Part shown: positions 1 through 9,280 of the stretch, one piece after another | How the letters are laid out: the number at the start of each line of letters is the position of its first letter | How positions within the stretch are numbered: the first letter of the stretch is position 1 | Program-made: the position numbers and the translations under genes | IMG/VR virus record: IMGVR_UViG_2657244961_000006 | DNA from: a virus | Lineage: Duplodnaviria; Heunggongvirae; Uroviricota; Caudoviricetes | DNA: 9,766 nucleotides | Direction: 5' to 3' (one strand) | Notes under the pieces: model-generated | The model's database searches: none | The model's input: the letters and a program-made list of their open reading frames with translations, nothing else | What the model was told of the DNA's origin: nothing

Positions 1-1239
1 ATGGGCAGCGCAATTCATAGACTTAGCGATACTTTTTTACGAAAATTAAGCGGATCACCAGCCACAAAAAACGCCTTTTTTAATGACGGTGGCAATCTTA
101 GCGTAAGACATTCCACCAGCGGCCTTTTAACCTGGTATTTCACTTACAGGGCCGGAACTGGTAGGCAGGTATCACCTGAACGTCTGAGGCTGGGCAATTA
201 TCCCGATCTGAGCCTGAAAGCAGCCAGGGAAAAAGCGGCACAGTGTCGCGCCTGGCTGGCGGAGGGGAAAAATCCACGCCATGAGCTTAATCACACAGTG
301 CAGGAAGCGTTATCACCTGTGACGGTTAAGGAAGCGCTCACTTACTGGCTTGAGTCGTATGCGAAGGAAAAGCGCACAGACTACGAATCTCTGAAGAGCC
401 GGATCAATAAACACATAATCAGCCAGATTGGCGCTATGCCGCTGGAGAAATGCGAGCTACGGCACTGGCTGGCCTGTTTTGATCAGATGGCAAAGCTAAG
501 CCCTGTATCTGCCGGATTTTTGCTACAGGTATGCAAGCAGGCGCTTAAATACTGCCGCAAACGTCGCTACGCAATCAGCAACGTTCTTGATGATATGGTT
601 GTCGGTGATGTGGGAAAAAAAGCAGAAGTGAGCGAGCGCGTACTAACAAACAAGGAGCTTGGGGAATTACTCCGCGCCCTGGATGACAAAATATTCCCGC
701 CGTACTACAGCGCCCTGATTCGCCTCCTGATTGTTTTTGGATGCCGTACCACTGAGCTAAGACGCTCTGAGGTGCAGGAGTGGGATTTTAAGGAAATGCT
801 CTGGACAGTGCCGAAGGAGCACAGCAAAACGAAGGTCGCCATATTCAGGCCAATACCGGAAAGCATTTTGCCGTTCGTCACGCAGCTGGTGGAGCAGAAC
901 CGACGCACGGGTTTATTGCTTGGTGAACTGAAAGGGCAATCTTCGGTAGCAGAGTACGGAAGAACAGCGCACAGGCGCATTAATCAAGCCCCCTGGTCGT
1001 TGCATGACATCCGGCACACATTTACAACCATGCTGAACGATTTAGGCGTGGATCCGCATATTGTCGAGCAGCTTACAGCCCACCAGATGCCAGGGATGCA
1101 ACGAGTCTATAACCACTCCCGCTATCTTGATGCAAAACGTGATGCTCTTAACCTATGGGTAGACCGTCTCGAGCTTCTCCAGAACAATGATGAAAAAATC
1201 GTTGTTATGACCCCGCGAATTTACCACCAAAATTCTTGA
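1..1239 (+). CDS. int: Tyrosine recombinase, P4-type integrase (412 aa)
   Basis: ORF 1-1239. N-terminal arm-binding-like region typical of P4-family integrases, and C-terminal catalytic motifs: R in TTELRRSE, H-x-x-R in HDIRHTF, Y in VYNHSRY. Starts at window position 1, so the true N-terminus could lie upstream. Confidence 0.9.
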   Translation: MGSAIHRLSDTFLRKLSGSPATKNAFFNDGGNLSVRHSTSGLLTWYFTYRAGTGRQVSPERLRLGNYPDLSLKAAREKAAQCRAWLAEGKNPRHELNHTVQEALSPVTVKEALTYWLESYAKEKRTDYESLKSRINKHIISQIGAMPLEKCELRHWLACFDQMAKLSPVSAGFLLQVCKQALKYCRKRRYAISNVLDDMVVGDVGKKAEVSERVLTNKELGELLRALDDKIFPPYYSALIRLLIVFGCRTTELRRSEVQEWDFKEMLWTVPKEHSKTKVAIFRPIPESILPFVTQLVEQNRRTGLLLGELKGQSSVAEYGRTAHRRINQAPWSLHDIRHTFTTMLNDLGVDPHIVEQLTAHQMPGMQRVYNHSRYLDAKRDALNLWVDRLELLQNNDEKIVVMTPRIYHQNS

Positions 1240-1243
1240 CAAA

Positions 1244-1280
1244 TCACGGCTGTTTTTTCTTTAAGAGATTACAGCCGTGA
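1244..1280. repeat. Perfect 10-bp inverted repeat (tcacggctgt / acagccgtga) with a 17-nt loop, 5 bp after the int stop; possible int terminator or protein-binding site
   Basis: Read directly from the sequence. No T-run follows the stem, so it is not a classical intrinsic terminator. Confidence 0.4.
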
Positions 1281-1291
1281 ATAAATCGTAG

Positions 1292-1320
1292 AATATCGGA
1301 AAATATCGGAAAATATCTTC
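1292..1320. repeat. Tandem 10-bp direct repeat aatatcggaa x2 plus a partial third copy, in the AT-rich region upstream of alpA
   Basis: gaatatcggaaaatatcggaaaatatcttc read directly; lies in the 420-bp AT-rich intergenic region between int and alpA. Confidence 0.5.
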
Positions 1321-1656
1321 GCTTTACATATATCAACCATCAAAAAATTGGAATGTCTTCTTCTGAACTTTTATTCTCTGTTTCTTGATTGTTCCAACAC
1401 TTGATGGTTTATCTATTTGTTTTTAATGAGATAATTCAAGCGTAATGACAAATGACGACATTTTTTGTTGCGTCTCTGAAAAACTCGTGACACGATTTTA
1501 AACACTGACGAGCTTCTACGAACCTTAGCGAACATAGCTTTTGGCAAGGTTGTGTCTTTAATCTAAGAGGTGAAAAAGAATCTAAGTAATATCCGATCTC
1601 ATATATCTACAGCTAAGAGAAAAGTTTATATACGTAATTTTTATGTAGGTTTTTGT

Positions 1657-1866
1657 ATGCGTGAAATAAATGAAGATCGCGTAATCCGTGAGGATGAATG
1701 TCGTAAGTTAACTGGAGTGTGTCGTACTACACGCTACGAACTGGAGAAAAAAGGGAGCTTTCCGTCTCGCCGTAATCTTGGTGGGCGTTCTGTAGGTTGG
1801 CTGCTGTCCGAGGTTATGGAATGGGTTAAAAGCCGGGATCGCATTAATTCAGGTAAGGCAGCGTAA
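1657..1866 (+). CDS. alpA: AlpA-family transcriptional regulator / excisionase-like protein (69 aa)
   Basis: In-frame ATG at 1657 inside ORF 1570-1866. Product MREINEDRVIREDECRKLTGVCRTTRYELEKKGSFPSRRNLGGRSVGWLLSEVMEWV has the AlpA/MerR-like HTH pattern (helix, GGR-x-VGW, E-x-x-EW). Size matches AlpA (~70 aa); the GTG at 1570 would give an atypical 98-aa form. Confidence 0.8.
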   Translation: MREINEDRVIREDECRKLTGVCRTTRYELEKKGSFPSRRNLGGRSVGWLLSEVMEWVKSRDRINSGKAA

Positions 1867-2174
1867 AGGGGAGCATATGACATATAAAACAAAGGCGACC
1901 TGGGGCGGTCGCCAATGGATACACACTAAACTTGAACGCATCACCAACAATGCCACATTTGCGGCTGGTGGGCAATGTGATCAGTCAGATTTGGTTCGTT
2001 CCAAGGTTTGCAACGAGAGCTTTTTCCTGTGCTCTTTAAGGAATTTCTCAAGAGCAAAAGCACATGGCGCGAATCTTTCTGATTCATGCTCTATCTTTCT
2101 GTGCCGTCTTTTCCGTGCTGGTGATAATGTTTTGGTCAATTCTTTATCGGTCATTGTGCTGCCCTGTAAAGCAA

Positions 2175-2202
2175 TGCGCCGTAGTACCTCACACCACGGC
2201 GC
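2175..2202 (-). terminator. Hairpin gcgccgt-N13-acggcgc just downstream of the minus-strand RHH gene; candidate terminator
   Basis: 7-bp GC-rich stem read directly, 13 nt past the stop of the 2215-2517 gene on the minus strand, followed by a modestly T-rich stretch on that strand. Confidence 0.4.
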
Positions 2203-2214
2203 GGATGGTGATTA

Positions 2215-2517
2215 TTATGATTCTTGGGCTTTACGTCGCTGGAGTTCTTCACGAGCGACGGCTACGAGTTGCCCGATTTCCTCCGCTGCCCTGATGCCTA
2301 TTTGTTCGACCTTAGCTAGGGCATCCAGTGAAGACACAAGGGGATTTTCTCCGCTGCCTTCTGCCTTGCGGCGGGCGATCTCACCACGAACGGCTGTAAT
2401 CACGAAAGCGGCTATTGTTTCCCCTTCCGTTTTCGAATTTTCCATTTCCTCGATTACATCATGGGGGAAGCGGATATTTTTCATTTGCGATCTGCTATTG
2501 ATGTTTCCTGTTGCCAT
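2215..2517 (-). CDS. Putative ribbon-helix-helix (Arc/CopG-like) DNA-binding regulator (100 aa), divergent from the replication operon
   Basis: ORF 2215-2517 on the minus strand. N-terminal KNIRFPHDVIEEME fits an RHH beta-strand followed by helices; balanced charged composition. The overlapping plus-strand frame is Ser/Cys-rich and low-complexity, typical of antisense. The start could instead be the internal Met 11 codons downstream. Confidence 0.6.
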   Translation of the reverse strand: MATGNINSRSQMKNIRFPHDVIEEMENSKTEGETIAAFVITAVRGEIARRKAEGSGENPLVSSLDALAKVEQIGIRAAEEIGQLVAVAREELQRRKAQES

Positions 2518-2538
2518 CAGAATGTCCGGTTATTTTAA

Positions 2539-2634
2539 GGTGTGTACACATTACACCAAAAGGTGTGTTAATAAAACACTTGACGCGGTAGCACACTTAA
2601 ATTTAACCTGTACATACACCAGTGATTGTGGTGT
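2539..2634. promoter_or_regulatory. Divergent control region with repeated GGTGT/ACACC half-sites forming dyad operator candidates
   Basis: Read directly: GGTGTgtacacattACACC (2539-2557, containing the 8-bp palindrome GTGTACAC), ACACCaaaaGGTGT (2553-2566), GTGTTaataaAACAC (2565-2579), ACACCagtgattgtGGTGT (2616-2634); a TTGACG -35-like hexamer at 2580-2585. Lies between the leftward RHH gene and the rightward Icd-like/primase operon. Confidence 0.5.
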
Positions 2635-2707
2635 ATATACAGCAACGCCCCGCAGTGCTGGAACACATGCAGGGCGTCTAACCAAACCGTTAAACGAGGT
2701 AACGATT

Positions 2708-2905
2708 ATGGCTGGAACACAGCATACCCCACGACTAGCGCACACACAAACGGCCTTTGTGTGGCGTTTTCTGGCACTGAGTGCCGGAGAATCCCAAATC
2801 ATCCACGTCACCGCCTGGACGGAAAGCGAAGCGCGTAACCATTGCCCGTCCGGTTGTGTCGCTGTATTCGCCGCCCGTATTCGTCAGGAGGTGCGCCATG
2901 CCTGA
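2708..2905 (+). CDS. Small Icd-like / Ash-family-like protein (65 aa), first gene of the rightward replication operon
   Basis: ATG at 2708 with a GAGGT Shine-Dalgarno ~10 nt upstream; this is the C-terminal 65 codons of the long ORF 1877-2905. Product MAGTQHTPRLAHTQTAFVWRFLALSAGESQIIHVTAWTESEARNHCP... resembles, from memory, the small Icd-like proteins annotated in P4-type prophages. Family assignment is unverified. Confidence 0.55.
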   Translation: MAGTQHTPRLAHTQTAFVWRFLALSAGESQIIHVTAWTESEARNHCPSGCVAVFAARIRQEVRHA

Positions 2906-3218
2906 TATGTCAAATTACCAGTACCTGATTAATCCGCATTTTAACTGTGAGCATGATATTGCTAAAAAGGTTTATTCCGCTGCGGATGGGGCTACTGACA
3001 ATATATCAATGGGTATTGCGTCAATTGGTAGCCTGATGTGGCATGCGTCAGAAAATGAGGACTATGACGAAAAGGCTATGCGCATTGATATGGGTAATAT
3101 CGGTTTGTTACTGGCAATGCTTGGACATTTTGATATTTCGTTACGGTGCACCATTGAAAATGCCACAGATGCATTAAATGCCATAAAGAAAGCGAATACT
3201 GATTCAAATCGGGGATAA
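2898..3218 (+). CDS. Hypothetical protein (106 aa)
   Basis: ATG at 2898 preceded by a strong SD (caGGAGGtg, 2885-2892) and overlapping the stop of the upstream gene; the ORF-track frame 2781-3218 extends further upstream but that part overlaps the Icd-like gene. Acidic product, no recognisable motif. Confidence 0.55.
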   Translation: MPDMSNYQYLINPHFNCEHDIAKKVYSAADGATDNISMGIASIGSLMWHASENEDYDEKAMRIDMGNIGLLLAMLGHFDISLRCTIENATDALNAIKKANTDSNRG

Positions 3219-3224
3219 ATAATC

Positions 3225-3524
3225 ATGAGAACGTATTTATCTGGCTTGACTGCCAGCGGTTATGCACATCCCAAAATTATCCCCGGCGCTATTTATCGGG
3301 ATAAGAACGGCAACAGAGTAACAGTAAAATCGATAATGTTTGACCGTGTGTACTTTATTCGTGATGGCTATTCATTTCATAGCTCGCTGAACGTGGAGAT
3401 CTTTATTTGCAGATTCCGGCGGGAAATCCCGCCTTCCAGAAATAACCATGTGTCACGTGTGGATGTGGATAAAAAACTACAGGAACTGAAAAACATGATT
3501 GCCGCGTGGAGAGAGCAGAAATGA
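3225..3524 (+). CDS. Hypothetical protein (99 aa), translationally coupled to the primase
   Basis: ORF 3225-3524 with a GGGGA SD upstream; its stop (TGA 3522-3524) overlaps the primase start (ATG 3521-3523) in an ATGA arrangement. Confidence 0.55.
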   Translation: MRTYLSGLTASGYAHPKIIPGAIYRDKNGNRVTVKSIMFDRVYFIRDGYSFHSSLNVEIFICRFRREIPPSRNNHVSRVDVDKKLQELKNMIAAWREQK

Positions 3525-5338
3525 AAAAAGCGCCAAATTTAAAACACCAACCGCGTGACAAAATGACGGAAGTCATCATTTTTGCGGGTAGTGATGCGTG
3601 GGCACATGCGAAGCAGTGGCAGGAACAGGACGGGCGACTGGCTGGCGATAACGTGCCACCTGTCTGGCTTGGAGAGCAACAACTTGCCGAACTGGACAAC
3701 CTGCAAATCGTACCGGACGGACGCTATCGCGTGCGTCTCTACCAGGCGGGGTTATTGCGTCCGGGGCTTGTTAATACCATCGGGCAGAAACTGGCAGCGG
3801 CAGGTGTCAGGGATGCTGATTATTACCCTGAAGGAATGCACAGCCAGAAACGGGAGAACTGGCGCGAATATCTGGAACGTGAACGGGCAGAGCAGGCGGA
3901 AAAGAAAAAGGTAGTTGAACTGCCTGTAAAGAAAAAAGAGCGGGTAAAAGACGATAACGCTTCATCACTGGCGCTTAACCAGATGGGAGCAAGTCAACGC
4001 GGCGAAGTTCTCCTGGCACATTATGGCGGTGAACTGGCGATTCATGCTGACTCTGACACTGTTCACCATTACAACGGCGTTGTATGGGAGCCAGTACAGG
4101 ATAAAGAATTACAGCGAGCTATGGCACAGATTTTCATTGATGCGGAGATCAGCTATTCGCAGAACGCCATTAAATCGGCGGTCGATACCATGAAGTTAAG
4201 TTTGCCTGTAATGGGGAATACAGCCCGTAACCTGATTGGATTCAGTAACGGGGTATTTGATACCAGAACAGGTAATTTTCGGGAGCATAACAAAAACGAC
4301 TGGTTGTTAATTGCCAGTGAATTACCTTTCAGCCCACCAGCAGAGGGGGAAACGCTGGCAACACATGCGCCGAATTTCTGGAAGTGGTTACGCCGTTCGG
4401 TGGCTGAGAATGACCGCAAGGCGGATCGCGTACTGGCTGCATTATTCATGGTGCTGGCGAACCGGTACGACTGGCAGTTATTCATTGAGGTAACAGGTCC
4501 AGGGGGAAGTGGTAAAAGCGTGATGGCGGAGATTTGCACCATGCTGGCGGGTAAGGCCAACACAGTATCGGCAAGCATGAAGGCGCTGGAAGATGCAAGG
4601 GAACGCGCGTTAGTGGTTGGCTTTTCGCTGATTATCATGCCGGATATGACCCGCTACGCTGGTGATGGGGCAGGAATTAAGGCCATTACAGGCGGTGACA
4701 AGGTGGCAATTGACCCGAAACACAAAGCCCCCTACTCAACGCGTATTCCGGCAGTAGTGCTGGCGGTTAACAATAACGCCATGTCATTCAGTGACCGCAG
4801 CGGGGGGATCTCACGTCGTCGGGTGATATTCAATTTTTCGGAAGTTGTACCGGAGAACGAACGCGATCCAATGCTGGCGGAAAAAATAGAAGGTGAGCTG
4901 GCGGTAGTGATTCGCCATCTGCTTACACGGTTTGCTGACCAGGACGAAGCCAGACGCCTGTTATATGAGCAGCAGAAATCTGAAGAAGCACTGGCGATAA
5001 AGCGAGAGGGGGATTCGCTGGTGGACTTCTGCGGCTATCTCATGGCGTCGGTAATGTGTGATGGCCTGTTAGTGGGTAATGCTGAAATTGTGCCATTCAG
5101 CCCACGCAGGTATCTCTATCATGCCTATCTGGCTTATATGAGGGCACATGGGTTTGGTAAACCTGTAACACTGACGCGCTTCGGTAAAGATATGCCGGGG
5201 GCAATGGCGGAATATGGCAGGGAGTATATGAAACGGAAAACGAAGCACGGTTTGCGTTCAAACGTGACACTGACGGAGGAATCAGAAGACTGGATGCCAT
5301 CATGTGTATCGGTCACTAATGACGATAGCAAAAATTAA
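3521..5338 (+). CDS. P4-family phage/plasmid primase with SF3-type helicase domain (605 aa)
   Basis: ATG at 3521 (GGAGAG SD 8 nt upstream) inside ORF 3506-5338. Walker A GPGGSGKS, Walker B-like VVGFSLIIMPD, D5-N / primase C-terminal-like central region. Immediately followed by the cognate-looking iteron array. Confidence 0.85.
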   Translation: MKKAPNLKHQPRDKMTEVIIFAGSDAWAHAKQWQEQDGRLAGDNVPPVWLGEQQLAELDNLQIVPDGRYRVRLYQAGLLRPGLVNTIGQKLAAAGVRDADYYPEGMHSQKRENWREYLERERAEQAEKKKVVELPVKKKERVKDDNASSLALNQMGASQRGEVLLAHYGGELAIHADSDTVHHYNGVVWEPVQDKELQRAMAQIFIDAEISYSQNAIKSAVDTMKLSLPVMGNTARNLIGFSNGVFDTRTGNFREHNKNDWLLIASELPFSPPAEGETLATHAPNFWKWLRRSVAENDRKADRVLAALFMVLANRYDWQLFIEVTGPGGSGKSVMAEICTMLAGKANTVSASMKALEDARERALVVGFSLIIMPDMTRYAGDGAGIKAITGGDKVAIDPKHKAPYSTRIPAVVLAVNNNAMSFSDRSGGISRRRVIFNFSEVVPENERDPMLAEKIEGELAVVIRHLLTRFADQDEARRLLYEQQKSEEALAIKREGDSLVDFCGYLMASVMCDGLLVGNAEIVPFSPRRYLYHAYLAYMRAHGFGKPVTLTRFGKDMPGAMAEYGREYMKRKTKHGLRSNVTLTEESEDWMPSCVSVTNDDSKN

Positions 5339-5352
5339 ACTTATGGAATAAC

Positions 5353-5581
5353 TGTTCACCACTGTTCACCCTGTCATAAATATCTTTTATATCAGTATAT
5401 TATAGGGTGAACAGTTATTTATGAACTGTTCACCAAACTATTCACTGTTCACCTTTTTGATTGTTTATTGAGCTTCAAGGGTGAACAGTGGTGAACAGTT
5501 GGTGAATAGTTTTTGTGAAACTGTTCACCCCTTAACATTATGAATTAAAAGAGAAAATATCAAAAGGTGAACAGGTGAAGG
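5353..5581. repeat. Replication-origin-like iteron array: about 9 perfect copies of TGTTCACC / GGTGAACA in both orientations plus degenerate copies, interspersed with AT-rich DNA
   Basis: Direct copies at 5353, 5363, 5427, 5446, 5522; inverted copies at 5406, 5480, 5490, 5566; degenerate ggtgaata at 5501. The octamer TGTTCACC matches, from memory, the type I iterons bound by P4 alpha protein at ori/crr. Confidence 0.8.
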
Positions 5582-5723
5582 GTTAAAACGCAAAAATTTT
5601 AATTTACTGCTGTGAGATAAAGCCTATGACAGCGAAGCACACCAAAACAACAGGCGGGGAATGATGATCCGTACGGGGATAACATACCGTTTTAAGCAAC
5701 GAGTAACAGAAGCCGGAGCAATC

Positions 5724-5804
5724 CGCCTTTTTTATGGGTCCTCCCGGTGGAGTGGTCTGCCACGGGGCGGGAGCGTCGCGGAAAAAGGCTGGTTTTTGCA
5801 TTTT
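5724..5804 (+). other. cos-like site A: ~80-bp element resembling the lambda cosQ-cosN junction, with candidate cohesive-end 12-mer GGGCGGGAGCGT (5765-5776)
   Basis: Ungapped match to the remembered lambda right-end/left-end junction (gggtcctttccggtg...acg GGGCGGCGACCT cgcggg). Here gggtcctcccggtgg...cacg GGGCGGGAGCGT cgcgg, conserving the flanks and 8 of 12 positions of the 12-mer. About 90 percent identical to element B. Confidence 0.6.
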
Positions 5805-5853
5805 CATGGCGGCGGCAGCATGTGTGATAATTTATTGATAATTAAAAGTTATT

Positions 5854-5951
5854 TCTGTTTTCACCTGTACAATATTTTTTTCTCCCTGTCATTAGACCAG
5901 TTTGCAATTAATTGAAATATATAAATAAATCTGTTTTTCACCTGCCAGGTG
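5854..5951 (+). repeat. Two direct repeats tctgtttt(t)cacctg (5854-5867, 5930-5944) plus palindrome CACCTGcCAGGTG (5939-5951) downstream of cos-like site A; candidate cosB-like terminase-binding sites
   Basis: Read directly. They loosely recall the lambda cosB R-site region (ctgtttttgtccgtgg, from memory). Confidence 0.4.
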
Positions 5952-5993
5952 GAGTTGCCTGTGTCAAAACGTGTTCAGATGGCGGGATATTTA

Positions 5994-6017
5994 TGCCGGA
6001 TTTTCTCCGGCTTTTTT
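5994..6017 (+). terminator. Rho-independent terminator (gccgga-ttttc-tccggc followed by TTTTTTGTG)
   Basis: 6-bp GC stem, 5-nt loop and T-run read directly. Sits between cos-like site A and the 6120 gene. Confidence 0.65.
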
Positions 6018-6119: not shown

Positions 6120-6326
6120 GTGAGTTGTATTAATGACCTGAACACGGGCGATATCAGGGGTGGTTCCGTTCATCTGGATGCGCAGACCGTTATGCGCCTT
6201 AAGCAGTACAGGATCGACCATATAAATCATCATCCTGACAAACCATTACCAGGTGTGGCGCAGATTGTCAGACATGCCGTAAACACCTGGCTTAATCAGA
6301 ATGGTTTTGCATCGGTGGGGGAATAA
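6120..6326 (+). CDS. Small putative RHH-like DNA-binding protein (68 aa, GTG start), translationally coupled to the downstream protease/capsid-like gene
   Basis: Strong SD AAGAGGAAG (6105-6113) about 6 nt before GTG 6120; stop TAA overlaps the next ATG (TAATG at 6324-6328). Product contains a beta-strand-like GGSVHLDAQTV followed by helical segments. Confidence 0.5.
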   Translation: MSCINDLNTGDIRGGSVHLDAQTVMRLKQYRIDHINHHPDKPLPGVAQIVRHAVNTWLNQNGFASVGE

Positions 6327-8239
6327 TGAATCGCTGGTACACCATTAAGGCGGCGGATGTTCGTGGAGCGGCGGATATATCTATCTATGAGGAGATTGGC
6401 GGCTTCGGTGTTACTGCAAAGCAGTTCGCGGAAGACCTGAAAGCCCTTGGCGATGTTTCACATATCAATCTGAGGATCCATTCACCAGGTGGTGATGTGT
6501 TTGAAGGCATCGCCATCTATAACCTGCTACGGAATCATCCGGCAGACATTACGGTTTATATCGATGGTGTTGCGGCTTCAATGGCTTCGGTGGTCGCAAT
6601 GGCTGGCGATCGTGTTGTGATGCCGGAAAACGCCATGATGATGATACATAAGCCGTGGGGTATCTCTGGCGGAAATGCTGGTGATATGCGTGATTATGCT
6701 GATTTGCTGGATAAGGTGGAAACCGTGTTAGTCCCTGCTTATGCCAGAAAAACGGGCAAATCAGCACAGGAAATTACCGCCATGCTGGAAGATGAAACCT
6801 GGATGGACGGGAAAGAATGCCTTAAGCACGGTTTTGCTGATGAATTGTTGCCATCCGTCAGAGCAATGGCGCGAATTGAATCGAAGCGCACAGGAGATTT
6901 TTTACATATGCCGGAAACCATTAAAGGAATGATTACACCGCCACAGGGAGCGGCAAATATTGCTGGTAATGAACAGAAACGCATCAATGGAATAAGTGAA
7001 GTGTTTAGCCTGTTCGGCAGTCGTTACGACGGGATCAAAATGGCGTGTCTGGAAGATGCATCATGTACACCGGAAATGGCCCGTGAAAAGCTGTTGAACG
7101 AGCTGGGGCGCGAGTCCACGCCATCCAATAAAAATACCCCGCCTCATATCTATGCCGGAAACGGAAACATAACAGGTGATGCAATTCGTCAGGGGCTTTA
7201 TTCCCGTCTTGGGTATGAACGCCCTGAACGAGGCAACCCTTACGCGATGATGAGCCTTTTTGAAATGGCCCAGGCATCACTGGTTGATCGTGGTATCACT
7301 GTGAGTGGTTTTATTAATCGCTCGCAGGTTGTTAATGCGGCTTTTACACACAGCAGCAGTGATTTTTCTCATATTCTGGCTGGTGGGGCTGAAAAATCTG
7401 TACTGAAAGGCTGGCAGGACAGCGGCGAAACGTTCCAGAAATGGACGCGTACCGGTTCGCTTTCAAACTTTCATGAAGCAAAGCGCGTTGGTCTGAATGG
7501 TTTTTCAAAGCTGGATAAAGTACCGGAAGGTGCGGAATATAAATACATCACCACCAGCGATAAAGGTGTACCTATTGCGCTGGCCACGTACGGGAATATT
7601 TTTTCCGTTACCCGTCAGGCCATTATCAACGATGACCTGACCCAGTTAACTACAATCCCCATGGCGATGGGACGCGCAGCCGCCAGAACAGTTGGCAATC
7701 TGGTTTATCTCCTGTTAACCAGCAACGGCAAGTTTACGGATGGTAAAGCGTTATTCCATGCCGATCATAAAAATCTTATTGCGAAGGATATGGACATGGT
7801 GGGGCTTGATGAAGCCCGTAAGCTGATGCGCCTCCAGGAGGATGCTAACGGCGACTCACTGAATATTACCCCTGCTTTTGTTCTGGTCCCTGCCGCGCTG
7901 GAATCTGCCGCGCGTCGCGCCATTCTGTCATCGTCATCAGTCTTTCCGGTTGGTGATGAGGGCACTATCAATCAGAACCCCGGCATCATTAACGTTGTGA
8001 AAGATATGGCAGAAGTAATTGTTGAGCCACGTCTTGATAAGGCCAATAGCAAGGAATGGTATGTAGCCGCAGCTAAGGGGATGGACACAATAGAAGTCGC
8101 TTATCTTGATGGTATGGATACGCCATATCTTGAGGAGCAGGTGGGCTTTACTGTTGATGGTGTCGCCTGGAAGGTGCGCATAGATGCAGGTGTCGCGGCC
8201 CTCGATTATCGTGGATTGCTGAAATCGAATGGAGCATGA
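6326..8239 (+). CDS. Fusion protein (637 aa): N-terminal ClpP-like (S14) prohead-protease domain plus large C-terminal domain, possibly an HK97-fold major capsid-like domain
   Basis: ORF 6326-8239. Residues ~20-190 show the ClpP signature (GDVFEGIAIYN, GVAASMASVVAMAGD with the candidate catalytic Ser, MMMIHKPWG with the candidate His, later acidic residues). The C-terminal ~430 aa are long enough for a scaffold plus capsid domain; the capsid assignment is from general resemblance only. Confidence 0.8.
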   Translation: MNRWYTIKAADVRGAADISIYEEIGGFGVTAKQFAEDLKALGDVSHINLRIHSPGGDVFEGIAIYNLLRNHPADITVYIDGVAASMASVVAMAGDRVVMPENAMMMIHKPWGISGGNAGDMRDYADLLDKVETVLVPAYARKTGKSAQEITAMLEDETWMDGKECLKHGFADELLPSVRAMARIESKRTGDFLHMPETIKGMITPPQGAANIAGNEQKRINGISEVFSLFGSRYDGIKMACLEDASCTPEMAREKLLNELGRESTPSNKNTPPHIYAGNGNITGDAIRQGLYSRLGYERPERGNPYAMMSLFEMAQASLVDRGITVSGFINRSQVVNAAFTHSSSDFSHILAGGAEKSVLKGWQDSGETFQKWTRTGSLSNFHEAKRVGLNGFSKLDKVPEGAEYKYITTSDKGVPIALATYGNIFSVTRQAIINDDLTQLTTIPMAMGRAAARTVGNLVYLLLTSNGKFTDGKALFHADHKNLIAKDMDMVGLDEARKLMRLQEDANGDSLNITPAFVLVPAALESAARRAILSSSSVFPVGDEGTINQNPGIINVVKDMAEVIVEPRLDKANSKEWYVAAAKGMDTIEVAYLDGMDTPYLEEQVGFTVDGVAWKVRIDAGVAALDYRGLLKSNGA

Positions 8240-8267
8240 CAACAAGGCGGTACTTTGAACACGTGGG

Positions 8268-8431
8268 GCGGCGAGCTGCCGCACCATATTCCTGAACAAC
8301 TGAGCAAACGAGAGAGGTATACCGACAAATGGCAGCGACGCACACACTCCCTCTGGCGTCACCGGGCATGGCACGCATCTGCCTTTACGGGGATTTACAA
8401 CGATTTGGCCGCCGCATCGATCTTCATGTGA
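8268..8431 (+). pseudogene. Start-less 3' remnant of a lambdoid tail-tip assembly protein K-like gene, overlapping the start of the I-like gene
   Basis: The frame is open from 8240 to the TGA at 8429-8431 with no start codon, encoding ...GELPHHIPEQLSKRERYTDKWQRRTHSLWRHRAWHASAFTGIYNDLAAASIFM. This resembles the C-terminus of lambda K as I recall it, and in lambda K overlaps I in the same way. Confidence 0.5.
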
Positions 8432-8970
8432 AAACGGGGGCCGAAGCCATCCGGGCGCTGGCCATGCAGATCCCAGCGTTTCGTCAGAAACTGAGCGATG
8501 GTTGGTATCAGGTGCGTATTGCCGGGCGTGATACAGGCGAAAACGAATTATCAGCCCGTCTTAATGAACCGCTGGAAAATGGTGCCGTGATCCACATCGT
8601 ACCGCGTCTGGCTGGTGCCAAAAGTGGCGGCGTGTTTCAGGCGGTGCTTGGTGCGGCGCTGATTGCTACGGCAATCTGGATGCCAGGAATCAGTATCGCT
8701 TTCAGTGACATTCTCTTTTCAATGGGGGCGGCGATGACACTTGGTGGTGTTGCACAGATGCTGGCACCGAAAGCCAGCACAGCAACAGCCAGCACCACGG
8801 ATAACGGTAAGCAGAACACCTATTTCTCCTCTCTGGATAACATGGTTGCCCAGGGCAATGTTATGCCTGTTCTGTACGGTGAAATGCGCGTCGGGTCGCG
8901 GGTGATTTCGCAAGAGATCAGCACAGCAGATGAAGGGGATGGCGGCCAGATTGTGGTGATTGGTCGCTGA
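8329..8970 (+). CDS. Lambdoid tail-tip assembly protein I homologue (213 aa)
   Basis: ORF 8329-8970. N-terminus MAATHTLPLASPGMARICLYGDLQRFGRRIDL... and C-terminus ...DNGKQNTYFSSLDNMVAQGNVMPVLYGEMRVGSRVISQEISTADEGDGGQIVVIGR closely match my recollection of phage lambda gpI. The central hydrophobic segment is shorter than in lambda. Confidence 0.8.
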   Translation: MAATHTLPLASPGMARICLYGDLQRFGRRIDLHVKTGAEAIRALAMQIPAFRQKLSDGWYQVRIAGRDTGENELSARLNEPLENGAVIHIVPRLAGAKSGGVFQAVLGAALIATAIWMPGISIAFSDILFSMGAAMTLGGVAQMLAPKASTATASTTDNGKQNTYFSSLDNMVAQGNVMPVLYGEMRVGSRVISQEISTADEGDGGQIVVIGR

Positions 8971-8987
8971 TACAAAACGTTTTATGT

Positions 8988-9010
8988 AAAACCGCCTGCG
9001 GGCGGTTTTG
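8988..9010 (+). terminator. Rho-independent terminator (aaaaccgcc-tgcg-ggcggtttt) after the I-like gene
   Basis: GC stem flanked by an A-run and a T-run, read directly. The same hairpin follows gene I in lambda, as far as I recall. Confidence 0.7.
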
Positions 9011-9041
9011 TCGCTCATGGAGCATAAACAATAGTGACAGT

Positions 9042-9124
9042 CGCCTTTTTTGGGTGGGTCCTCCCGGTGAGGTGGCCTGCCACGGGGCGGGAGCGGCGCG
9101 GAAAAAGGCTAGTTTTTGCATTTT
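9042..9124 (+). other. cos-like site B: second copy of the cosQ-cosN-like element, with candidate 12-mer GGGCGGGAGCGG (9085-9096), directly upstream of the Nu1-like gene
   Basis: About 90 percent identical to element A over ~80 bp. The downstream AT-rich DNA (ttcgtcat..., gtttttattt) resembles the lambda cosB/I-site region as remembered. The position relative to the small terminase gene mirrors lambda cos-Nu1. Confidence 0.65.
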
Positions 9125-9280
9125 TATTCGTCATCATCATCTTTCTATTATATTGAATTTTAAGTGTTTTTATTTTTGGTATGTTAATTTTGCTTATTTT
9201 GTGTTCAACATGCAGCGCGTTTTTTGACCTTTTTTAAAAGATATTTGCAAGATGCATTTTTAAAACATTCTGGAGCGGGT
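9125..9280 (+). promoter_or_regulatory. AT-rich cosB-like / promoter region upstream of terS
   Basis: A+T-rich 150 bp between cos-like site B and the terS start; contains ttcgtcat and gtttttattt motifs; no individual promoter elements called. Confidence 0.4.

Follow-up and report, generated by a model that had tools for sequence, protein, structure and literature searches.

An Escherichia coli PICI satellite carries two lambda-type cos sites that probably belong to the cdtI/Tritos/mEp460 phage lineage

The window analyzed here, a 9,766-nt stretch of viral DNA (IMG/VR record IMGVR_UViG_2657244961_000006), carries two copies, site A and site B, of a sequence that resembles the cohesive-end site of phage lambda. 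We consider it very probable that both are complete lambda-type cos sites (cosQ, cosN and cosB) of a Gram-negative PICI, that they are native to the lineage of phages cdtI, Tritos and mEp460, whose members are the likely helpers, and that a helper TerL would nick both sites 12 nt apart, with specificity residing in cosB. For a widespread, uncharacterized group of E. coli satellites, this reading names likely helpers of the cdtI/Tritos and mEp460 types, including toxin-carrying prophages.

The pattern GGGCGGGAGCGK has exactly two matches in the window, both on the plus strand, where 0.10 would be expected by chance per window. These matches confirm the positions at which an earlier note on this DNA had placed two candidate cosN 12-mers, GGGCGGGAGCGT at site A (ending in GCGT) and GGGCGGGAGCGG at site B (ending in GCGG). 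Each 12-mer forms part of an 80-nt direct repeat (5728-5807 and 9048-9127) with 89% identity between its copies, and we therefore regard the two sites as homologous copies rather than a coincidence. The lambda reference used for comparison (NC_001416) reads …GGGTCCTTTCCGGTGATCCGACAGGTTACG/GGGCGGCGACCT/CGCGG… across cos, the slashes bounding the 12-mer. Relative to GGGCGGCGACCT, site A is changed at positions 7, 8, 9 and 11 and site B at positions 7, 8, 9, 11 and 12, and both sites keep the lambda flanks, ACG before and CGCGG after the 12-mer. The earlier note had named an error in its lambda alignment as grounds for dropping its reading; checked against NC_001416, the alignment is correct. Its description of the sites was likewise borne out, namely that the flanks and positions 1-6 are conserved with changes at 7-9 and 11, that the copies differ at position 12 (T at site A, G at site B), and that a CTCCCG...CGGGAG dyad is present in both, with differing bases between its arms.

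Beyond the 12-mers, both sites have the anatomy of a lambda-type cos (Table 1). They share with lambda the cosQ GGGTCCT, the left half GGGCGG and a CG dinucleotide at both nick positions (5763-5764 and 5777-5778 at site A), and are lambda-identical in these elements outside positions 7-12. In each, cosQ lies 22 nt upstream of the nick position, compared with 23 nt in lambda and within the 20-25 bp or so of a lambda-type cos. The right half reads GAGCG(T/G) here and CGACCT in lambda. A lambda-type cosB extends for about 190 bp up to the start of terS; the ATG of the DUF1441 gene (9281) is found at bp 197 from the site B cohesive end, as against 191 in lambda and 197 in Tritos, and at site A the homology to Tritos and cdtI covers 204 bp, reaching to where their terS starts, so that both sites resemble lambda cos in a spacing of about 190-197 bp to terS. 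By homology with lambda, the bottom-strand nick would fall after position 12, and a GpA-family terminase is predicted to leave 12-nt 5' cohesive ends at both sites.

Table 1. Features of the window, with coordinates counted from its first nucleotide.
Feature	Coordinates	Strand	Basis or remark
Satellite backbone	1..5575	+	Integrase 1-1239, regulators, primase 3506-5338, presumptive iteron-rich origin 5337-5575
Left terminator-like hairpin and T-run GCCGGAGCAATCCGCCTTTTTT, left flank of site A cassette	5712..5733	+	Sequence
cosQ of site A, GGGTCCT	5736..5742	+	22 nt upstream of top-strand nick position; same sequence as lambda bp 48473-48479
cosN core of site A, predicted 12-nt cohesive end GGGCGGGAGCGT	5765..5776	+	Bases 1-12 of the cdtI and Tritos records
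cosB of site A, cdtI/Tritos type	5777..5968	+	Runs to the first codons of phage terS; rest of terS deleted here
Candidate TerS-binding repeat TCTGTTTTCACCTG in site A cosB	5854..5867	+	Direct repeat; also in cdtI and Tritos
Second candidate TerS-binding repeat TCTGTTTTTCACCTG in site A cosB	5930..5944	+	Partner of the 5854..5867 copy
Right terminator-like hairpin GCCGGATTTTCTCCGGCTTTTTT, right flank of site A cassette	5995..6017	+	Sequence; comparison with sister element L190
ClpP-like prohead protease/major capsid protein fusion, 637 aa	6326..8239	+	Pfam CLP_protease 2e-35, Phage_capsid_4 3e-54; RefSeq annotation
Phage-derived tail fragment: end of gpK-like gene and gpI-like tail assembly gene	8263..8970	+	Pfam Lambda_tail_I
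cosQ of site B, GGGTCCT	9056..9062	+	22 nt upstream of nick position
cosN core of site B, predicted cohesive end GGGCGGGAGCGG	9085..9096	+	cos 12-mer of mEp460 and of 29 IMG/VR loci ordered cos, TerS, TerL
cosB of site B, mEp460-like type, CATTCGTCATCA motif	9097..9280	+	Diverged from phages in the lambda-R3-equivalent region
Satellite TerS homologue, DUF1441, 161 aa	9281..9766	+	Pfam DUF1441 1.3e-35

As judged from these alignments, the main difference between the two sites is their cosB, and neither cosB type is related in sequence to that of lambda. The cosN and cosB of site A (5765-5968, 204 bp) are 94.6% identical to bp 1-204 of Tritos and 93.6% identical to bp 1-204 of cdtI. This cosB contains two copies of TCTGTTTT(T)CACCTG, at 5854-5867 and 5930-5944, which may take part in TerS binding. 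The cosB of site B departs from the phage sequence around bp 48-70, which corresponds to the position of R3 in lambda. The cognate proteins are also distant from those of lambda, as the TerS is of the DUF1441 type (22% identity to Nu1) and the TerL is 24% identical to gpA.

A sensitive search of both sites against 50,697 phage records led to lambdoid E. coli phages. The records of cdtI (NC_009514) and Tritos (OV696610) start with GGGCGGGAGCGTCGCGGAAAAAGGCT, the first 12 bases of which are the T form of the 12-mer, and end in …GGGTCCT(T/C)CCGGTGGGG…CCTGCCACG, the right ends stopping at ...CCACG; the deposited boundary of both records is therefore base 1 of the 12-mer. In the record of Hafnia phage yong2, that phage's own 12-mer stands at the end and CGCGG at the start, in agreement with a 12-nt stagger. 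The cultured phage mEp460 has the G form, GGGCGGGAGCGG, as its cos, which is the spelling of site B. Within IMG/VR, the G form occurs in 73 stretches (a complete count) and the T form in at least 120; the order cos, TerS, TerL N-terminus is seen in at least 97 loci with the T form and in 29 with the G form. We required the TerL N-terminus after TerS for assignment to a phage, since helper-embedded satellites also precede a TerL fragment. The G at position 12 was considered as a satellite-specific mark and was ruled out, because mEp460 and the 29 loci in true phage gene order have it.

The phages thus found have a DUF1441-type TerS, a fused protease-capsid gene and a GpA-family TerL that is a distant relative of lambda gpA (24% identity, E = 4e-22). 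Site A is of the type of cdtI, Tritos and Ayreon, which have the same 12-mer (94% identity with Tritos over the 204 bp); site B is of the type of mEp460, PhiR47_1 and vB_EcoS-606R10, which again have the same 12-mer, and site B together with its terS homologue is 72-77% identical to the mEp460 type. On these sequence matches, we conclude that the 12-mer is no peculiarity of the satellite but the native cohesive end of lambdoid E. coli phages that form a large lineage. The view that the 12-mers are cosN cores is supported by their exact identity to the cos of lambdoid phages, together with a cosQ and flanks as in lambda. The search with 12-mers and flanks that the earlier note had suggested for naming the helper lineage points to cdtI, Tritos, mEp460 and relatives and not to lambda itself; these phages pair a DUF1441-type TerS with a TerL only 24% identical to gpA. 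The 12-mer itself was already in GenBank as the left end of cdtI. In a full-text literature search for the 12-mer strings, the only phage paper to match did so with the mEp213 form. The cohesive end of mEp213 is GGGCGGCGCGCT (PMC12315714). In some IMG/VR contigs we also observed two GGGCGGCGACCT cos sites in opposite orientation 0.5-0.9 kb apart (L019, at 4192 on the plus and 2587 on the minus strand; L030; L059).

The earlier note had taken the changed 12-mers to indicate either a helper terminase with a different nicking specificity or one copy that cannot be cleaved. Neither proposal is supported by our comparisons. The changes are all confined to the right half of cosN, and complete phages have one or the other spelling as their cos. 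Lambda-like phages commonly differ at cosN bp 7-12 (N15 at 9 and 12; phiD326 at 9 and 12; Gifsy-1 at 8, 9 and 11), lambda TerL nicks right-half variants efficiently, the lambda and N15 terminases show no cosN specificity, and phages remain viable when their cohesive ends are mismatched (PMC4669245). Both sites are in this respect like the lambda-like family of N15, phiD326, Gifsy-1 and mEp213, in which variation is confined to positions 7-12 (PMC4669245, PMC12315714); right-half cosN variation, like the occurrence of PICIs with two cos sites, is already published. A scan with positions 7-12 left free turned up numerous further right halves beside an unchanged cosQ and flanks, among them CGACCT (lambda), CGCGCT (mEp213), CAGCGG (Fels-1), CGGACT, CTGGCT and CGGCAT. 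Compared with a single reference TerL, the TerL proteins of T phages and those of G phages each show about 99% identity. Position 12 also varies among the sister satellites: site A carries T in some and G in others, the two closest relatives (L001 and L002) have G at both sites, and one other element has the alleles reversed. In a composite in which the satellite is embedded in a helper (L035), the prophage cos has T and the TerS-proximal satellite cos has G. Position 12 is therefore, by all indications from these alleles, freely polymorphic.

It is nonetheless conceivable that the helper TerL has acquired an altered nicking specificity in co-evolution with the variant right half, in which case lambda-type enzymes would not cut these sites and the T/G difference would matter. 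We consider this quite improbable. In its favor, the TerL of the lineage is only 24% identical to lambda gpA, and phages with a cdtI/Tritos-type cosB and cdtI-type TerS nearly always have T at position 12 (33 T and 1 G in strict phage gene order, among the matches listed). These points are outweighed by TerLs that are about 99% identical to one another yet go with T or G, by the L035 composite, whose helper cos carries T and whose satellite cos carries G, by the many right-half spellings found in one conserved context and by the lack of lambda/N15 cosN specificity in published genetics (PMC4669245). The right-half tolerance on which our own reading draws was measured with the lambda and N15 terminases, which are only about 24% identical to cdtI-lineage TerL. 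Because TerLs of about 99% identity occur with T or G and right-half changes are tolerated, we expect that neither copy is uncleavable on account of its 12-mer and that no new nicking specificity is needed. The spelling of the 12-mer would then be a marker of lineage rather than of a changed enzyme specificity, and GGGCGGGAGCG(T/G) with GGGTCCT 22 nt upstream should be usable to place the genome ends of this phage group and to find its satellites. The CTCCCG...CGGGAG dyad could in principle have been kept in both copies as a functional hairpin or cruciform, for example in regulation or termination, and it does appear in the predicted minimum-energy fold of each. This is extremely unlikely, as the folding energies are no better than those of shuffled sequences (z = -0.60 and +0.32), cdtI has CTTCCG and forms no hairpin, and, across unique cos sequences, CTCCCG stays beside cosQ with 12-mers that are unable to pair, while CGGGAG 12-mers also occur with CTCCCA, CTTCCG and CTCCCT. 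The shuffle z-scores and this lack of covariation speak against the dyad as a selected structure; as far as the sequences indicate, it is kept through the shared ancestry of the copies and the conserved cosQ flank.

The element that carries these sites has counterparts of ~10.8 kb, 95-97% identical to it, in 56 complete E. coli genomes; its place of insertion lies between cspD/yljB and clpS. According to the annotations of these sisters, the gene order is tyrosine integrase, HTH regulator, Icd-like protein, DUF4222 protein, primase, ClpP-like protease/capsid fusion, tail fragment with gpI-like gene, and DUF1441. The element thus shows the features by which PICIs are recognized: a size of about 10-20 kb, an integrase, an AlpA-type regulator, a primase with an origin, a co-oriented late/packaging zone and a specific att site. 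From its gene content we conclude that the window is a Gram-negative PICI satellite of ~10.8 kb. Compared with phages cdtI, Tritos and mEp460, it is a 10.8-kb satellite that lacks TerL, portal and most tail genes and holds two cos flavors in one molecule. Just 3' of the primase gene (5337-5575) we observed dense direct and inverted copies of GGTGAACAG/CTGTTCACC, an array that presumably represents replication origin iterons. One complete-genome assembly lists a circular record of 10,790 bp as a 'plasmid' (L001, NZ_CP148328.1), which is probably an excised or replicating form of the satellite caught by the assembly.

Between site A and site B lies the protease/capsid fusion gene, which, in a helper-embedded composite, is only about 55% identical to the fusion gene next downstream in the flanking DNA (L187, 9164-10999), the latter presumably belonging to the helper. 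For the capsid genes of other PICIs, either a change in capsid size or dispensability has been reported. The tail region (8263-9025) is 86-88% identical at the nucleotide level to mEp460, cdtI, Tritos and many lambdoid phages; among sister elements it is present where site A and site B are spaced 3320-3350 nt apart and absent where the spacing is 2535 nt.

The two sites differ in how consistently they are retained. Sister element L190 has a single terminator copy, GCCGGAGAAATCCGGCTTTTTT, and is missing everything between the two copies of the window, such that site A and its cosB constitute a discrete indel of ~283 bp between terminator copies (5712-6017). Site A is missing from L190 and L174, whose capsid gene is 98-100% identical to that of the window; none of the family members seen lacks site B. 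In this comparison of sisters, the constant site is site B, and site A is an optional ~283-bp cassette. Joint capture of site A and the capsid gene in a single phage block was ruled out, given that sisters have the 98-100% identical capsid gene without site A. A further relative, L101, has a single hybrid cos (6311-6581), which reads as site A upstream of the 12-mer and as site B downstream of it; its integrase and primase are 95% and 99.7% identical to those of the window, and it is without capsid or tail genes. The hybrid could either represent an ancestral state with one cos or have arisen by recombination between the two repeats.

Since site A is dispensable in nature, it may be unused. 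One could accordingly suppose that only site B works and that site A is a leftover of recombination with a cdtI/Tritos-type phage, perhaps even a harmful one like cos2 of EcCICFT073, the deletion of which raised transfer (PMC6092414). The discrete indel, the sisters that lack it beside a 98-100% identical capsid gene, and the universal presence of site B would all agree with such a history. We nevertheless think it unlikely, because at least 17 loci keep the exact cosQ, flanks and left half, with a cosB that over 204 bp shares 94% identity with the cosB of live phages, and a decaying relic should show lesions in some of them. The pattern search detects intact sites only and could have passed over degenerate copies, but none turned up upstream of the capsid gene.

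Site B is followed by a full-length TerS homologue encoded by the satellite itself, for which a function with helper TerL is predicted. This DUF1441 protein aligns end to end with the TerS of mEp460-type phages at 67% identity. Its identity to cdtI TerS is 30% overall, with a local BLAST match of 48% over the C-terminal 75 aa, and its identity to lambda Nu1 is 22%. Redirection by a satellite-encoded small terminase is known from the pac-type SaPIs. The last ~20 codons of the satellite TerS (…CNQIISRMVKNDVVNEVAKQA) are unlike the acidic tail of phage TerS (…RDQIALRVTEAGADDEEELQQEE). The C-terminus of lambda Nu1 binds TerL, so that a satellite TerS with a different tail may contact helper TerL in a different manner, and its capacity to recruit the helper enzyme is uncertain.

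We propose that, upon helper induction, the satellite would excise and replicate into concatemers, and that a helper GpA-family TerL would be brought to cosN and nick it 12 nt apart. The cosB of site A would be read directly by a cdtI/Tritos-type TerS that brings TerL; at site B, this would be done by the satellite's DUF1441 TerS homologue or by an mEp460-type TerS, with packaging specificity set by cosB. The sequence parts of this scheme are present and identified in the window; the pairings of cosB with TerS, and the use of both sites, we infer from their sequences. In model E. coli PICIs, the packaged DNA is a concatemer of phage length (PMC6092414, PMC10111431), and for this reason we expect about four units (43.2 kb) to fill a head of 44-47 kb, with termination possible at any cosQ-cosN. 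If packaging started at one site and ended at the other, the cohesive ends would contain one mismatch, since the 12-mers differ at position 12.

Two cosB flavors in one satellite, one of them in a cassette that is gained or lost, bear on how satellites switch or broaden their helper range. A tentative extension of our proposal, which we hold to be possible though doubtful, is that the two cos sites are specificity modules for two helper lineages, site A being a portable ~283-bp cassette taken over from cdtI/Tritos-type phages and operating directly through their TerS, and site B operating through the satellite's own TerS with an mEp460-type TerL. Were this the case, the satellite could ride two kinds of helper, and its helper range could change quickly as a cassette with a cos is gained or lost between the terminator repeats.

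With its two sites, the element joins the known two-cos E. coli PICIs. EcCICFT073 has two functional cos sites (cos1 and cos2), the one adjoining the specificity gene being essential (PMC6092414, PMC6739421). The window resembles it in having an integrase, AlpA-like regulator, primase, origin and late genes, as well as two lambda-type cos sites with one immediately upstream of a specificity gene. In contrast to EcCICFT073, which has the lambda 12-mer, no phage-like cosB, and Rpp, the window has a complete phage cosB at site A and a full-length DUF1441 TerS homologue; the gene beside the satellite cos is this homologue and not an Rpp homologue. At the sequence level, the DUF1441 protein is without a match to the solved Rpp structures: a search against all PDB chains (E <= 10) gave 5 matches, none to Rpp or a TerS and none significant.

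The packaging module of the window is also found with another integrase inside the TerL gene of prophages (L128, at 2-370 and 10520-11365; L035; L187; L171; L159), where TerL breaks off near aa 332 and is taken up again near aa 325. In L128, L035 and L187 the arrangement of cos A, capsid fusion, cos B and DUF1441 module is that of the window with 97-99% protein identity, as in helper-embedded PICIs (PMC10111431), and in L035 and L128 the prophage's own cos has the same 12-mer. This embedding links the module physically to the helper lineage. Unlike the helper-embedded PICIs, the window has a different integrase (23% identity) and a chromosomal intergenic site.

EcCIIHE3034 of strain IHE3034 is a published TerS-encoding PICI (PMC6092414), which we located at 8456-18224 of L313, with cos-like sites at 14527 and 16969. 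It shares with the window the cspD/yljB-clpS site, a near-identical integrase, an identical HTH regulator and the layout cos, capsid gene(s), cos, terS. Unlike that of the window, its late module is lambda-type, with an E-like capsid, a D-like decoration protein and a Nu1-type TerS, and its 12-mers are first a VT1-Sakai-like GGGCGGGAGGCG and then, proximal to terS, lambda GGGCGGCGACCT. From these sequences, the packaging module seems to have been swapped as a unit between otherwise similar satellites. We also observed that the Stx1 phage VT1-Sakai (L310) and the first cos-like site of EcCIIHE3034 (L313, 14527) have 11 and 10 nt, respectively, between the ACG and CGCGG flanks, suggesting that in this group either the right flank or the length of the overhang differs.
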